From an uncultured Actinomycetes bacterium (GTDB lineage: Bacteria > Actinomycetota > CADDZG01 > JAHWKV01), in contig CAZCSK010000008.1 of the NCBI GenBank assembly GCA_964501265.1, positions 387-64,386 of the forward strand: DNA of 64,000 nucleotides, read 5' to 3'. The notes under the pieces were generated by a model. That model did not search any database and had not been told where the DNA came from. It saw only the letters and a program-made list of their open reading frames with translations. A program made the translations under genes and the position numbers. The stretch's first letter is position 1. Every line of letters starts with the position of its first letter. Below are positions 20,916 to 60,750 of the stretch, one piece after another.

Positions 20916-23048
20916 TTAGTCAAACGTCACCTTAGCCACCAAAAGGACCAGGTCGTCAGCCAGTGAACCGTGAGAATAGTCTACGATCGACCGTTCCAGC
21001 CCCTCAACAATTGACTCCGCCCCGAGGCCGGCGAACTCGCCCAAGAGCGCGATGAGCCTGGCCTCTCCAAAGTTCTCCCCGTCGCGCCGCGCCTCGATCG
21101 CGCCGTCGGTGAAAAGGATGATCGCGTCTCCGTGACGGAGGTCCGCTGAATGTTCTCTTAGTTCGATATCCGGCACGGCTCCGAGCATTGTGCCCGGTTC
21201 CCCCAAAGTCTCGACTTGCCCGTTCGCCCGTAGAAGCAGCGGAGAGGGATGCCCAGCGCAGACCGTCGTGATGCGGGCTCCGAAGTCCGTTGGATCTATT
21301 TGTGCATAGGCCACGGTGCAGAACTGGTCCTCACCGCTTTGCTGCAACATGGCGTCGTTGAGCACAGTGAGAATCCGGCTGGGTTCGCGTTCTTGCATTG
21401 CCTCAGCGCGCACCGTGTACCTGATGAGCGGGGTCAAGGCAGCGGCTCTGGCCCCTCTGCCGGAGACATCTCCGATGACTATCGCCCAACGCTTCTGCCC
21501 ATACGAGAAAACGTCGTAGAAGTCACCACCTACATCGATTCCTTCGCCGGCGGCCGCGTAACGGACGGTGACTTCCATCCCTGGGATGCGTTCAACCAAC
21601 CTTGGCCGAAGGCTCTCCTGCAAGGTGGTTGCGATGTACCTCTGAGTTTCGTGAAGGCGGATGTTGTCCACTGCCAAGGCGGTACGGTCTGCAAACTCCT
21701 GGGCAAGGTCCAAGTCTTCCTTTTCGAACCTGGCCGATGATTCGTCCCGTCCCAGAGTGATCGTTCCCAAGATGCGCCCGCGCGCTCGCATGGGCACGAT
21801 GATCTGAGATGCAGATCCAAAGGCGAGGATCTCCTTGTGTTCGGAGTCGTAGAAAGTCATGCTGTCTACGAATTCCCCATGGAGGTCTAGGTTCTCGGCT
21901 TTCGACTTGTCCCTGTGAAGGATGATTGCCTTGGAGATCGACCCGCTCTCCTCCCGCATTTGGATCGCACACCAGTCGCCGAGGCTGCTCACAAGCAAGT
22001 CTCCAATCTTGCTGAGCATTGAGGCAACGTCCATCGACTTGGCAAGGATGACACCGGCTTCGGCTAAGAGCTGCATCCGGTCGTTGCGGGCCCTTAGTCG
22101 TGTCTCGGCCCGGCGCCTTTGAATGAACTGACCCATCTGAAGTGCGATCGAGTCCATCATTTCGAGCAGTGCATCGTCCCGGTCGACAACGTCACGATTA
22201 AAAAACTCGAGCACTCCAAGGACGTTGCCCGCCGACCGGACAGGTACGCCGAACGCCGCACGCAAGCCCACCTTGTCCGCGTAGAGGGCCCGGGGGAAAT
22301 TTTGATCTTGGCGTAGTTCCGGAATCCAGGCGTGCTCGCCTGTCTCCCAGACCCGGCCGGGCAGGCCGATCCCTCGGCGAAATTCGAAGCGTTGGGTGAC
22401 CGAGGCGAATTCATCCATTTCCTCAGACTCGCGCCAGACCTTGACGCAGCGGAGAAATTCACCCTCGTCATCAATGGTCCAGAGGGCTCCAAGAGCCCAA
22501 CCCAACTCGATGCAGACCGTACCTATGACCTCATTGGCAGCGTCGGACACCGGGCTGGACTTCGTAAGCGCTCTGCTAGCCGCGAACACCGCCCGCAATC
22601 GCAGCTGAGTGAGCCGCTCCTGAGTAATGTCCACCATCCAGCCGTTGATTCGGGCAGGAAAGCCCTTCCTTTTGAGCGTGACCTCGGAAGTGTCCCGGAC
22701 CCAAACTGTGCGCCCCCCGGCGCCGATCATGCGGTAGATGAGGTCGTTGGGCCGGCCATCGGTTATCGCCTCCGACCGCAAACGAATCATTTCTGCCCTG
22801 TCAGCCGGGTGCAGATGATTTTCCCAGAATTTTGAATCGGAGTACCAGTCTTGTAGTGGATACCCGAGCAGCTGTTCGCCTCCGGCGCTAACGAACTTAA
22901 ATCCGGAGAGGTTGCCGTCCGTTTCCCATATCACTGCCCCTGTGCGATCGAGGCGACCGACGGCAATCTGGCGCGCCCGATCCGCTTGCCGTCGAGCTTC
23001 GCGCTCGCGAGCGAACGCCGCAGACCTGCGCTTCAGGACTCCCGTCAA
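20916..23048 (-). CDS. PAS-GAF-GAF-PP2C (SpoIIE/RsbU-type) serine phosphatase
   Basis: C-terminal PP2C motifs GGDFYDV, GDVSGRG, FTDGAIEAR. N-terminal PAS and two GAF-like regions. Confidence 0.8.
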   Translation of the reverse strand: MTGVLKRRSAAFAREREARRQADRARQIAVGRLDRTGAVIWETDGNLSGFKFVSAGGEQLLGYPLQDWYSDSKFWENHLHPADRAEMIRLRSEAITDGRPNDLIYRMIGAGGRTVWVRDTSEVTLKRKGFPARINGWMVDITQERLTQLRLRAVFAASRALTKSSPVSDAANEVIGTVCIELGWALGALWTIDDEGEFLRCVKVWRESEEMDEFASVTQRFEFRRGIGLPGRVWETGEHAWIPELRQDQNFPRALYADKVGLRAAFGVPVRSAGNVLGVLEFFNRDVVDRDDALLEMMDSIALQMGQFIQRRRAETRLRARNDRMQLLAEAGVILAKSMDVASMLSKIGDLLVSSLGDWCAIQMREESGSISKAIILHRDKSKAENLDLHGEFVDSMTFYDSEHKEILAFGSASQIIVPMRARGRILGTITLGRDESSARFEKEDLDLAQEFADRTALAVDNIRLHETQRYIATTLQESLRPRLVERIPGMEVTVRYAAAGEGIDVGGDFYDVFSYGQKRWAIVIGDVSGRGARAAALTPLIRYTVRAEAMQEREPSRILTVLNDAMLQQSGEDQFCTVAYAQIDPTDFGARITTVCAGHPSPLLLRANGQVETLGEPGTMLGAVPDIELREHSADLRHGDAIILFTDGAIEARRDGENFGEARLIALLGEFAGLGAESIVEGLERSIVDYSHGSLADDLVLLVAKVTFD

Positions 23049-23549: not shown

Positions 23550-24403
23550 TGTCTCAAGAGCGCTAGGCTCTTGGCCAGAAGGCGGGATACGTGCATTTGA
23601 GATATTCCGAGGTCGCGTGCGATCTCGGTTTGCGTCTTTCCCGCAACAAATCGCATATGGAGCACCTGTCGTTCCCTCCGGGGCAATTTTTCCAACAGGT
23701 TCTTTACGCTCGACCAGGCTTCGAAGAGTTCGATGGACTCGTCTGCGGAACCCATCCGCGATATGCGCGCTTCTAGGTCCTCGGCTGCAGGGGTATCCAG
23801 GGAAGCCAGGGAGTAGGCGCCGCTTGCTTCCATAGCATCCAGGATCTCCTCTTCCGAAGTGTTGAGTTGCTTTGCGATCTCAGGAATCGTGGGGGCCCGG
23901 CCAAGCTCTTGAGACATCCCCGGAACGGCCCTGGATATAGACAGTCCCATCTCCTGAAGGCGGCGGGGAACCCTAATTGCCCACCCGTGATCCCTGAAGT
24001 ACCGCTTGATCTCTCCAAGTACCGTCGGAGTCGCATATGTCGAGAACTCGATGCCCCTCGTAAGATCAAACCCTGCAATCGCCTTCAGGAGGCCAATGCT
24101 GCCGACTTGGATCAGGTCGTCGAGAGGTTCTCCTCTGCCCTGAAACTTTCTCGCCAGATACTCCACCAGCGGCATGTGGAGGCGAACCAGTTCGTCCCGG
24201 ACAGACGGCTTTTCATTTAACTGAGCGAAAAGTTGCCTCGTGAGCTCCTTGTCCGTCGCTGCAGATTCCCCCAATGCTAAACGCCGGAACTCTTGAACAT
24301 TCGAATCGCCGGGCTGCCGCCGTCGCTTTCGAACGAGACCTCGCCACTTAGAGCAGTCAGTATTTTCCAAGACAATTCCGACGCGATGCCCACAGGAGGC
24401 CAC
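23531..24403 (-). CDS. Group-3 sigma-70 family sigma factor (SigB/SigF-like); start uncertain; last 7 codons lie in a repeat copy
   Basis: Regions 2-4 present (LIQVGSIGLLKAIAGFD, YATPTVLGEIKRY, ERQVLHMRF..TQTEIARDLGISQMHVSRL). The ORF from ATG 24403 would overlap the upstream gene by 127 nt. Confidence 0.75.
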   Translation of the reverse strand: MASCGHRVGIVLENTDCSKWRGLVRKRRRQPGDSNVQEFRRLALGESAATDKELTRQLFAQLNEKPSVRDELVRLHMPLVEYLARKFQGRGEPLDDLIQVGSIGLLKAIAGFDLTRGIEFSTYATPTVLGEIKRYFRDHGWAIRVPRRLQEMGLSISRAVPGMSQELGRAPTIPEIAKQLNTSEEEILDAMEASGAYSLASLDTPAAEDLEARISRMGSADESIELFEAWSSVKNLLEKLPRRERQVLHMRFVAGKTQTEIARDLGISQMHVSRLLAKSLALLRQGGSGG

Positions 24404-24651
24404 GAGTCGGAGAGACCATCGACCGACAAACGCAACTCGAGAAAGCCTTCATTAGGGGAAATTTCTAACGTGAAGGTTCCGTCGTCACCGGCATGGTCAA
24501 GAAGGCATGCAGCAGCTTCATCTACAGCGAGCCGTATGTCGTCGATGGCGTCGATTGTGAAACCGGCCATTGCGCCCAGTCCCGCGGCATGAGTTCGCAG
24601 AAAATGGATGAAGGCCGGCTCTGCGGGCACTCGAAGAACGACGGCGCTCAT
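24277..24651 (-). CDS. RsbW-like anti-sigma-factor protein with degenerate HATPase motifs
   Basis: N-box-like IDDIRLAVDEAAACLL aligns to the RsbW N-box, but the catalytic E..N and G-boxes are substituted. Sits between the kinase and the sigma gene. Confidence 0.45.
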   Translation of the reverse strand: MSAVVLRVPAEPAFIHFLRTHAAGLGAMAGFTIDAIDDIRLAVDEAAACLLDHAGDDGTFTLEISPNEGFLELRLSVDGLSDSWPPVGIASELSWKILTALSGEVSFESDGGSPAIRMFKSSGV

Positions 24652-24758
24652 GCGGGTGGGCACGCGCCGGGTGGGTTTAGCATCAGACGTAGGATACGGG
24701 ACGTGAGCCAATCACGGCTTCGTCTGTCGGTTCCGATGGGCCCCTCTAGCGGGTGAAA

Positions 24759-25148
24759 TTAGGCCGCAAGGTCAATCTCAAACCAAACCGTCGTCTCGGA
24801 GTTGTTCGTGACACCCCAACGCGAAGAGAGCTGTTCAACAACCTCCAGGCCCCAGCCGCGCGTACCTGAATCTTCGGGGGTTCTTGTGGCGGGCGTGAAT
24901 CCGTTTCCGGAGTCGGTGACCTCGGCCCGAACAACGTCCTTTCGGATGATGATCTTCACCCCTACGGTCTCACCCGGAATTAGTCCGGCGTGCCGGATGC
25001 TGTTTGTCACGACCTCACTAATCAAGAGCTTCAGATCGTCGACCGCCTCCGCAAGAATATGATCCCTAAGCCCTTCGACCAAGCCACGAGCCACCCGCAC
25101 GGACTGCGGATCGGCGGGAAGCGAGGTTTCAATCACTTTGGTTGTCAT
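24759..25148 (-). CDS. Anti-sigma-factor serine kinase (RsbW/SpoIIAB-like, HATPase_c)
   Basis: N-box LLISEVVTNSIRHAG and G1 box DSGNGF. Confidence 0.75.
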   Translation of the reverse strand: MTTKVIETSLPADPQSVRVARGLVEGLRDHILAEAVDDLKLLISEVVTNSIRHAGLIPGETVGVKIIIRKDVVRAEVTDSGNGFTPATRTPEDSGTRGWGLEVVEQLSSRWGVTNNSETTVWFEIDLAA

Positions 25149-25245: not shown

Positions 25246-25707
25246 TCACGGTCGGCCCTCATCCTCGAACGCGCCGATCAAGACGCCATCGGCAGCTGTC
25301 ACGATTGCAGTCTGGAAATCGTGCTTCCGCATTCGGGTACGCATGTCCTCGATCGAGACATCTGGTCGATAGGTGCTAGGCCCATCTGTCATCACATCTT
25401 CTGCTAAGGCCTCTGGAGGAGTTTCGGCCAGCGCCTCATCGCGCAGAGCACCCAGAACGACCCCATCCTCACTCACAACAAGTGCCATATCCCATCCAGC
25501 ATCGAAGGCTCGGTTTCTAACTTCGTCGACACTGTCCCCGAGTCTGCATGTTGGCACTTGGCGAACATGCCGTCCGATCCTCGGCGTTGCGGAGTCACTC
25601 CCAATGGTGGGGAGACCATGGGCCATCCAACCGGCCTTGCCAGGCACGAAGTCGTAAACGCGCTCGAACCCGAGAGTTTCAAGCCGGCACGCGGCTCGTG
25701 GACTCAA
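25246..25707 (-). CDS. Distal part of rhodanese-CBS gene: rhodanese C-terminal half plus CBS pair, following an in-frame TGA
   Basis: CRLETLGFERVYDFVPGKAGW is the end of a rhodanese fold. Two CBS motifs follow. Same frame as the upstream fragment. Confidence 0.55.
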   Translation of the reverse strand: MSPRAACRLETLGFERVYDFVPGKAGWMAHGLPTIGSDSATPRIGRHVRQVPTCRLGDSVDEVRNRAFDAGWDMALVVSEDGVVLGALRDEALAETPPEALAEDVMTDGPSTYRPDVSIEDMRTRMRKHDFQTAIVTAADGVLIGAFEDEGRP

Positions 25708-25710
25708 ATC

Positions 25711-25914
25711 TCACTGGTAGTCGAAGCAGTAGACAATCACCGGGCGCGCCTTGTCGAGAGCCTGGGCCCTCCTTGCGCTCAGATCCTTCAACGGGAGATT
25801 GACCGCGCCGGGAATGTGTTCGGCGTCAAACTCTTCCTCGCCGAGGACCTCAACGAGCAGGGCCCCCTCCTTCACGAGCCTCTGGACTTCGATGTAGTCA
25901 ATATTCGTAACCAA
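25711..25914 (-). CDS. Proximal part of rhodanese-CBS gene: rhodanese N-terminal half ending at an in-frame TGA after the active-site Cys region
   Basis: EHIPGAVNLPL...PVIVYCFDYQ then TGA. Reading resumes in the same frame 2 codons later. Confidence 0.55.
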   Translation of the reverse strand: MVTNIDYIEVQRLVKEGALLVEVLGEEEFDAEHIPGAVNLPLKDLSARRAQALDKARPVIVYCFDYQ

Positions 25915-26202
25915 TCGGACCTCCCTGGAAGCGGTCTTCCCTGAAGACTAGGCGCGGCCCCGTGTTCGCGGAAACCTGACGTTCCAATGTACGTAGCATG
26001 TGTCCCGTTGGTTGTAGACAGAAAGAGGTGTCTCGCACCCGGGAAATGAGCATTCTCGATTGACGTGGCTTGAAGGAACGAGGGGGCGCGCCGGGTTGGG
26101 TCGAGTTCCTTTCAATGTTGTCGATCTATGCATATCGCGGGTCCTCTTGAAGGATTGAGATTGTTCTACCCATTTTCGTGGAGGAAATAACGCGTGCTGC
26201 AT

Positions 26203-26265: not shown

Positions 26266-26475
26266 ATGTGTGTATCGTGCGGATGTAGTACACCCGATGA
26301 CGACCACGGCGATGAAAAGCACATCGTCATGGATGAAGTAAAAAAGACCGGCGGTGCAGATCAGATTACGGAAGACCGCCTGCAGAAGGCCGCGGAAGCC
26401 GCTGGCATCACCACCGAACAAGCCAAGCAAAACGTGCGTGAGGGCCGTGAAACCGTGTCCTCACCCAACGCCTAA
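26266..26475 (+). CDS. Small acidic protein with N-terminal Cys cluster (MCVSCGCS...)
   Basis: Strong RBS GAAGGAGGAAAGCT before the ATG. 69 aa. No known family. Confidence 0.55.
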   Translation: MCVSCGCSTPDDDHGDEKHIVMDEVKKTGGADQITEDRLQKAAEAAGITTEQAKQNVREGRETVSSPNA

Positions 26476-26975: not shown

Positions 26976-27185
26976 ATGGGCGAGAGAATCGACGAAGTCG
27001 CGGGCAGGGCCAAGGAGGCTCTAGGCGATTTGACCGATGACAAGGAACTGCAGCGCGAGGGCAAGCTCGACCGTGCAGGCGCAGACCTTAAGCGGACAAT
27101 CAACGGCATCGGCGACAAAGCTGAGGATGGAGTCGACGCAGCCAAGAGGAAAGTTGAAGACGTTCTAGAACCTCAGAGGAACTAA
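26976..27185 (+). CDS. CsbD-family general stress protein (second copy)
   Basis: 69 aa. About 60% identical to the 20245..20454 product. KELQREGKLDRAGADLKRTINGIGDKAEDG. Confidence 0.75.
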   Translation: MGERIDEVAGRAKEALGDLTDDKELQREGKLDRAGADLKRTINGIGDKAEDGVDAAKRKVEDVLEPQRN

Positions 27186-60559: not shown

Positions 60560-60695
60560 TGTAAGAAGTCTTCGGGGCACGGTGAAATTCCGGACCGGCG
60601 GTCATAGCCCGCGAACCTCTCGATAACGAGGGGCCGACCCGGCTTTATTCCGGGGCCGACAGTTACAGACTGGATGGGAGAAGACTTTTGGCGGC
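60560..60695 (+). promoter_or_regulatory. FMN riboswitch (RFN element) upstream of ribD
   Basis: Conserved RFN segments CTTCGGGGCACGGTGAAATTCCGGACCGGCGGT, AGCCCGCGAAC, CCGGGGCCGACAGTTACAGACTGGATGGGAGAAGAC. A GC hairpin follows. Confidence 0.8.
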
Positions 60696-60750
60696 GCCGC
60701 GCGCCGCCTAAGTTCGCATGCCCCGGCGACCAAGAGGACCGGGAGAGCGA

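Follow-up and report, generated by a model that had tools for sequence, protein, structure and literature searches.

A gene for a rhodanese-CBS protein lies on the minus strand of a 64-kb stretch of metagenome-derived DNA from an uncultured actinomycetotal bacterium (hereafter the window). It appears as two open reading frames (ORFs) in the same frame, one of 67 codons (25914..25714) that ends PVIVYCFDYQ and one of 154 codons (25710..25249) that starts DLSPRAACRLETLGF. The sole separation between them is a TGA at 25713..25711, five codons past the codon for Cys63, which we read as the usual catalytic position of a rhodanese. From sequence comparisons we conclude that this TGA is very probably a selenocysteine (Sec) codon and that the gene is a genuine selenoprotein gene. 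This reading is favoured because the UGA is paired with a conserved cysteine in homologues, because at least 120 orthologues carry UGA at the same codon, and because the UGA is followed by a bacterial selenocysteine insertion sequence (SECIS) that is constrained only in the TGA forms.

Within the GC-rich window, 75 same-frame ORF pairs are split by one TGA, three of which are not overlapped by a longer ORF in another frame. The rhodanese-CBS pair is the only one of these three that was tested and found to have a domain across the stop, and the scan of the 64-kb window gave no other convincing TGA-split ORF as a second selenoprotein gene. The predicted coding sequence aligns end to end with full-length Cys homologues of 221-231 amino acids (aa). 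A close relative from another sample (locus L186; ENA ERZ27311206, 93% nucleotide identity) has the same GGGAGG upstream of its start. A promoter and terminator scan around the gene gave nothing above chance.

Table 1. Features of the predicted rhodanese-CBS selenoprotein gene, in window coordinates.
Feature	Position	Strand	Remarks
Complete predicted selenoprotein coding sequence, rhodanese + CBS pair	25246..25914	-	222 codons (221 standard + Sec68), then stop
Shine-Dalgarno-like GGGAGG	25920..25925	-	5-nt spacer to TTG start at 25914; read from sequence
Cys63 codon TGC	25726..25728	-	End of strand 59-62; five codons upstream of TGA
In-frame UGA, residue 68, motif C-x4-U	25711..25713	-	Aligns with conserved Cys
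Putative bacterial SECIS hairpin CGAGCCG-CGUGC-CGGCUUG	25680..25698	-	7-bp stem, 5-nt loop with G-U, -9.5 kcal/mol
Rhodanese domain, residues 2-105	25600..25911	-	Pfam PF00581, spans UGA
CBS pair (Bateman module), residues 112-217	25264..25581	-	Pfam, PDB profile, model, Foldseek
True terminator of the rhodanese-CBS gene, TGA	25246..25248	-	ORF reading

The two ORFs form one protein at the level of domains. The Pfam rhodanese family PF00581 matches residues 10-98, across the TGA (E 2.7e-11; 44 bits against a cut-off of 22). An AlphaFold model of the protein read through the UGA has a predicted local distance difference test score (pLDDT) of 95 and a predicted template-modelling score (pTM) of 0.82, and shows one compact two-domain protein. 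In this model, strand 59-62 ends at Cys63, the loop of residues 63-69 holds Sec68, and helix 70-80 follows. The layout of the ORFs, the position of the TGA relative to the rhodanese cysteine and the union of both halves in one rhodanese-CBS protein had been proposed in an earlier, sequence-only reading of this DNA, and all three hold. That reading also named two CBS motifs. Pfam places a single motif above its threshold (residues 172-214; 31.3 bits against a cut-off of 24), while a complete pair is supported by a search of the PDB with the family profile, whose matches to solved CBS pairs extend over residues 109-224, and by the AlphaFold model, which has two beta-alpha-beta-beta-alpha units at residues 112-217. 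A Foldseek search with the model likewise gives matches to CBS pairs, and by both the PDB profile search and Foldseek the C-terminal half resembles nucleotide-binding CBS pairs. The C-terminus of L186 (L186:2208-2900) is longer than that of the window protein (25246-25914) and different, ending ...FEDRPPRAGANKTAGA as against ...FEDEGRP; the very end of the CBS pair thus varies within the lineage. The protein does not reach the curated cut-offs for thiosulfate sulfurtransferases of the GlpE or PspE type (GlpE 27.2 against 102 bits, PspE 22.8 against 102 bits).

Orthologues, to which the sequence-only reading had pointed as a means of interpreting the TGA, are informative at this codon. A search of 5.8 billion proteins returned 616 relatives, the best of which are full-length (221-231 aa) and 50-54% identical to the window protein. 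The column of the TGA is occupied by Cys in at least 90% of 41 full-length homologues, within the motif YC[WFY]Dxx-C-D[LM]SPRAA, so that a Cys-x4-Cys loop in the relatives corresponds to Cys-x4-UGA in the window gene. Cys63 is invariant in this alignment. It is also present in all Sec and Cys loci retrieved as DNA, although the search patterns demanded it there, and residue 68 is Cys in 45 of 45 Cys-form genome loci, although that scan pattern required a Cys. One homologue, P0020, has Trp at the site (YDYQ-W-DLSPRAA) and is the only such full-length protein in the alignment shown; TGG and TGA differ in one base, and either a change from Sec to Trp or a base-calling artefact could account for it.

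The TGA form itself is widespread. We scanned metagenome DNA with the pattern YC-x4-TGA-D[LMI]SPRAA, leaving third codon positions free, and obtained at least 120 diverse soil-metagenome loci with TGA at exactly this codon, where about one chance match would be expected by a rough estimate from the information content of the pattern and a guessed database size. Beyond the motif, each of the 120 listed loci shows significant similarity to the window protein, 117 of them upstream, 113 downstream and 110 on both sides, with ten having no significant match on one side. The frame downstream of the TGA has a median length of 161 aa in the 96 complete cases listed and is at least 130 aa long in 91 of them. 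Median identity of the Sec-form proteins among the listed loci is 48%, with a minimum of 29%. TGA also terminates 51 of the 96 complete Sec-form genes listed, as well as the window gene, which indicates that it is an ordinary stop in these genomes and not a reassigned codon. The same UGA-containing rhodanese-CBS gene is carried by an actinomycetotal metagenome-assembled genome, GCA_030155705.1.

A neighbour-joining tree intermingles Sec and Cys forms and requires 11 or more switches between them (about 35 with randomised labels). Residues after the UGA, namely G82, F83, D88, K93, W96, G105, G155, G178, T181, R183 and G210, are equally conserved in both forms. A Logan assembly of run SRR6868923 matches the region in the window exactly. 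In L186 the TGA is kept, there is no frameshift or extra stop, the 48 nucleotides (nt) after the UGA are identical to those of the window and the hairpin is unchanged. Synonymous and non-synonymous differences between L186 and the window number 6:5 before the UGA and 14:18 after it, or 14:14 after it when four divergent C-terminal codons are left out. Finally, six homologue fragments chosen by C-terminal protein similarity alone all have TGA at the break (6/6), never TAA or TAG, and in all six the hairpin described below is fully paired (7/7).

The hairpin starts 12 nt past the UGA, and the distance from the UGA to its loop is 19 nt. The sequence-only reading had described a weak hairpin with a 5-bp stem about 14 nt downstream; this core is real, but the stem has 7 bp and belongs to a conserved element with the consensus CGAGCCGC-GUG-GCGGCUCG. 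That a SECIS-like fold should be looked for at the UGA was also part of that reading. Stem length, loop size, the UGA-to-loop distance of 19-20 nt and energy all agree with the bacterial SECIS (bSECIS) model, which allows a UGA-to-loop distance of 16-37 nt, a stem of 4-16 bp and energies at or below -7.5 kcal/mol (PMC13188914). Like the E. coli fdhF-type SECIS and the bSECIS consensus (the Zhang and Gladyshev model, PMC13188914), it is a coding-region hairpin just past the UGA, and in both the consensus and the family, whose members have 19-20 nt spacing and a stem of 7-8 bp, a small apical loop opens with G and then U or G. In contrast to the fdhF-type element, the window hairpin has an unrelated primary sequence and no internal bulge, and the family stem is built from the codons of the peptide PRAA[WCS]RLE, so that peptide and RNA constrain each other.

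To compare the hairpin between forms, 113 unique Sec loci from metagenomes were set against 45 Cys loci from species genomes, the latter obtained by a scan of genome collections with a peptide pattern that required Cys and was blind to TGA forms. All seven core pairs are present in 88% of Sec loci and 22% of Cys loci, and at least six of the seven in 99% and 56%, respectively. The median hairpin energy is -13.1 kcal/mol in Sec loci and -7.4 kcal/mol in Cys loci (p 1e-15). The peptide PRAAxRLE is encoded by both sets, yet its synonymous positions are fixed only in the Sec forms: Ala74 is GCC in 76/78 Sec loci (27/45 Cys loci), Ala75 is GCG in 78/78 (23/45), Arg77 is CGG in 76/76 (17/31), Leu78 is CUC or CUU in 77/77 (34/44), and the Arg73 codon ends in A or G in 77/78 (27/45). 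Fisher p values for these five stem codons range from 2e-5 to 4e-12. The codons just outside the stem (Pro72, Leu81 and Gly82) are free to vary in both sets. The stem-codon bias is not an ascertainment effect, because the scan pattern left those third positions free.

Pairing within the stem is specific, with 96% of hairpin cells paired as compared with 28-57% when the partner column is slid. A compensatory change from C-G to U-A (GCU...CAG) occurs in two loci (L093 and L109), where it turns Arg77 into Gln. In the loop, one G is invariant, and the base after it is U in over 90% of sequences and G in the rest. About 90% of Sec forms have Trp, Cys or Ser (UGG, UGC/UGU or UCG) at residue 76 (25687-25689), which is encoded here, and Cys forms mostly have Ala, Thr or Trp; in the Sec forms the SECIS loop and closing pair seem to determine which residue is used.

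Several observations weigh against a selenocysteine codon and its SECIS. The 67 nt after the UGA, folded as a single sequence, are no more stable than shuffled versions (z = 0.2) and adopt a different minimum-energy structure; the element came to light only when many sequences were compared. Covariation in the hairpin is sparse, with both sides changing in one of eight pairs, because the peptide encoded by the stem is highly conserved. As the Sec and Cys sets come from different collections, codon usage may in part reflect lineage. Moreover, searches of the 64-kb window and of the fetched loci found no selA, selB, selD or tRNA-Sec: none of 20 large window ORFs scanned with NCBIfam matched a sel gene, the window has no tRNA, no fetched locus has a tRNA-Sec, and Rfam gave only an FMN riboswitch in the window.

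For the TGA, the sequence-only reading had listed four options. Of these, selenocysteine is now strongly favoured, read-through of another kind is unlikely, and a pseudogene or a sequencing error can be rejected. Selenium-free read-through, in which a near-cognate or suppressor tRNA decodes the UGA as Cys or Trp at a low level with help from the hairpin, would agree with the lack of Sec machinery in the window and fetched loci and with the Trp of P0020. We nevertheless consider it very improbable: the hairpin has all the specific features of a bSECIS, including the invariant loop G and the mostly-U next base, the site is homologous to the Sec of a catalogued selenoprotein (see below), and nearly all sense-codon homologues have Cys at the position.

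A split gene would yield two polypeptides that assemble, with translation stopping at the UGA and restarting at the next-but-one codon, often as UGA-GAC-AUG. Codon 70 is indeed ATG in 45/78 Sec forms and a possible start (CTG, TTG or GTG) in others, and it is where gene callers begin the second ORF. In 17/78 Sec forms, however, codon 70 is CTC, ATC or CTT, which are not starts, and the same Met or Leu residue is also found in Cys forms. The break would land in the active-site loop of a single rhodanese domain. Only TGA occurs at the break in the similarity-chosen sample, where it exactly replaces the conserved Cys, and a restart leaves a hairpin that follows the SECIS rules unexplained. Such a split can be given only a very small chance, comparable to that of selenium-free read-through.

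A pseudogene, in which a nonsense mutation from TGC or TGT to TGA killed a Cys-form gene, is less probable still. Either Cys codon turns into TGA by a single base change, the locus looks broken to gene callers, and the window protein departs from consensus at near-invariant positions (Q19L, P25G, D95G and E104I). These unusual residues are common to L186, which argues that they are traits of the lineage and not signs of decay. The same TGA is found in the at least 120 divergent orthologues, with the long open frames described above. L186 keeps it free of further lesions and with similar ratios of change on either side, and the hairpin is selected only in TGA forms. A sequencing or assembly error with a true codon of TGC or TGG, which the metagenomic origin of the contig and the Trp of P0020 might suggest, is hardly credible given the identical sequence in the separate Logan assembly and the presence of TGA in a relative assembled from another sample and in at least 120 other contigs.

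With selenocysteine as the preferred reading of the UGA, we infer Sec insertion in the window organism by the following route. A SelB-type elongation factor carrying Sec-tRNA(Sec) would bind the hairpin at 25698..25680, with the G-U of its apical loop, and Sec would be inserted at the UGA instead of termination. The product would be a single protein of 222 residues in which the rhodanese domain is N-terminal and the CBS pair C-terminal. Sec68 would sit in the active-site loop of the rhodanese domain, five residues past Cys63 and just before helix 70-80, and the resulting Cys-x4-Sec pair may form the working centre. Most likely, Cys63 and Sec68 would cycle via a selenylsulfide or hold a sulfane-sulfur or soft-metal ligand, and the CBS pair would most likely serve as a nucleotide-binding regulatory module or as a dimerisation module.

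Five rhodanese-like selenoprotein forms, with the motifs UxxS, UxxG, CxU, UxxG and UxxxxU, are distinguished in a 2026 review, none of them with CBS domains (PMC13188914). The form 1 protein of Geobacter sulfurreducens, WP_010941598.1 (motif UxxS; PMC13188914, PMC12013277), shares with the window protein the PF00581 domain, a Sec five residues past the loop Cys, and a UGA with a downstream bacterial SECIS. BLASTP aligns its Sec with the window UGA (31% identity over 107 columns of one domain, E 1e-12). The local motifs are FYCGGVT-U-VLSPK in the Geobacter protein and VYCFDYQ-U-DLSPR in the window, where U-D-L-S fits U-x-x-S. Outside the loop the two proteins are only distantly related. WP_010941598.1 has at least 399 aa, a hydrophobic N-terminus, three stretches that match the window rhodanese and no CBS pair, whereas the window protein has 222 aa, one rhodanese domain with no extra N-terminal segment before it, and a CBS pair. 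It thus has neither the architecture of the form 1 prototype, a long protein with several rhodanese-like stretches, nor orthology to it.

TsoB (NF045694, UxxxxU) resembles the window protein in that its rhodanese-like domain holds a pair of redox-active chalcogen residues separated by four residues. Its profile weakly matches window residues 14-108, at 26.4 bits and thus far below the cut-off of 805. However, TsoB is a DsbD fusion with Sec at both positions, and the window protein is not a member of its family. DsbD_TM genes adjoin the rhodanese-CBS gene in some loci, an arrangement that can be compared with the DsbD fusion of TsoB. NF041203 ('LYCAU', form 3, CxU) likewise has a single rhodanese domain with Sec soon after the loop Cys, but as C-x-U instead of C-x4-U and without a CBS pair; the window protein scores 21.3 bits against a cut-off of 115.

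Among solved structures, the best match is BH2092 of Bacillus halodurans (PDB 3NHV/3O3W), with a profile E of 3e-15 and a Foldseek E of 3e-9. The Foldseek superposition on 3NHV has a template-modelling (TM) score of 0.74 on the target and a root-mean-square deviation of 1.5 Å over 110 columns. The BH2092 loop, YCWGPA-C-NGATKAA, is the all-Cys counterpart of the window C-x4-U. BH2092 is a structural-genomics rhodanese of one domain that has Cys and not Sec and no CBS pair, and its entry name states no function.

The predicted Sec site and decoding mechanism are therefore of a kind already known. What appears to be new is the rhodanese-CBS architecture, the actinomycetotal and soil distribution, and the predominance of the Sec form. 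A literature search found no paper that joins rhodanese, CBS domain and selenocysteine, and the CBS-pair fusion and the actinomycetotal distribution are absent from the selenoprotein catalogues examined.

In the window, the gene is followed by a sigma-B-type partner-switching module on the same strand. It comprises an RsbW-like anti-sigma kinase (25148..24759), a weak HATPase_c_2-like ORF (24277-24711, called as 97 aa), a sigma-B-type sigma factor (23531-24274/24403) and a PAS-GAF-SpoIIE phosphatase (23048..20916). The sequence-only reading had taken this stress-sigma island as a pointer to function. The arrangement is kept in L186 only; across the family such linkage is not conserved, with anti-sigma homologues in 2 and sigma homologues in 0 of 144 related loci, and the family as a whole gives this pointer no support.

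The neighbourhood of the family is variable. The commonest co-directional upstream genes encode an ArsR-type regulator, the DF-family (seleno)protein NF049942 and a MerB-like lyase, which, taken jointly, are found in 24 of the 108 loci with enough upstream sequence; none of the three is found in the window. The DF domain (small, thioredoxin-like, FDGCPNH...GSPT) is encoded directly upstream in L170:2364-3362, L194:5859-6212 and 13 other loci, either free-standing or fused to the MerB-like lyase. These genes were examined for Sec as independent proof of decoding, and all 15 copies have Cys at the motif. In GCA_030155705.1 the gene order is a PALP enzyme, a ThiS-like protein, ArsR, a DF-family protein and the rhodanese(UGA)-CBS gene. 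A mer-like cluster on a Logan contig (SRR28170337_6150; L190:3182-10483) ends in the split rhodanese(UGA)-CBS gene. Here, MerB lies just upstream on the opposite strand and is followed by a 193-aa ORF, a MerA-like protein with HMA and pyridine-nucleotide-disulfide reductase (Pyr_redox) domains, an ArsR/MarR regulator, a MerE-like protein, two redoxins, DsbD_TM and the split gene, the run being co-directional from the MerA-like reductase onwards. These neighbourhoods weakly suggest a role in thiol, sulfur or soft-metal chemistry.

Other features of the window were noted beside the gene. A Cys-rich 69-aa ORF (MCVSCGCSTPDDDHGDEKH...; 26266-26475, plus strand) is divergent from the selenoprotein gene, has no Pfam match, and is called at the matching position in L186 and in one further locus (L187). 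Next come a 96-aa ORF that encodes a hydrophobic stretch and a CsbD gene (26976-27185). The FMN riboswitch (60564-60689, plus strand; Rfam RF00050, 110 bits) lies just upstream of ORFs starting at 60718. The rest of the window is ordinary chromosome, with aro, pyr, coaBC, priA and tad-like genes; its chorismate synthase, with named matches at 72-76% identity, assigns it to uncultured Actinomycetota.

The in-frame UGA has consequences for annotation. Gene callers either break the gene in two, a 67-aa 'rhodanese' and a piece of about 155 aa, or place a spurious antisense ORF on top of it. In the window, such an ORF (25558-25944, plus strand; maximal length 128 aa) runs antisense to the rhodanese half. 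It is called as a gene of 108-110 aa in Logan and ENA assemblies, in which the true N-terminal half is uncalled, and this call is probably spurious and caused by the UGA. Fragments make up about 105 of the 120 best matches and about 130 of the 150 best representatives. They start at the UGA or at most about 25 residues past it, and are labelled 'CBS domain-containing protein', 'MgtE' or 'transcriptional regulator'. Their high share is what points to a predominance of the Sec form. As most database relatives are such fragments, the rhodanese-CBS family is systematically misdescribed.

As a tentative picture, which taken as a whole we regard as unlikely, the gene would belong to an uncatalogued, Sec-majority family of rhodanese-CBS proteins in uncultured soil Actinomycetota. 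Its Cys-x4-Sec centre would handle soft metals, organometals or sulfane sulfur in concert with the ArsR, DF-family, MerB-like, MerA-like and DsbD neighbours that accompany roughly one locus in five, and nucleotides bound by the CBS pair would gate it. In the lineage of the window, the protein might have been rewired to feed a redox or metal signal into the sigma-B-type partner-switching module beside it.

The rhodanese-CBS architecture would join the five rhodanese selenoprotein forms of the 2026 review, and Sec usage would be widespread in an uncultured soil lineage of Actinomycetota. The ArsR, DF-family and MerB-like neighbours, together with one mer-like operon, provide a concrete functional lead. 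The codons of a conserved peptide double as the putative SECIS, which would represent a case in which RNA and protein constrain each other, with a visible bias at residue 76.

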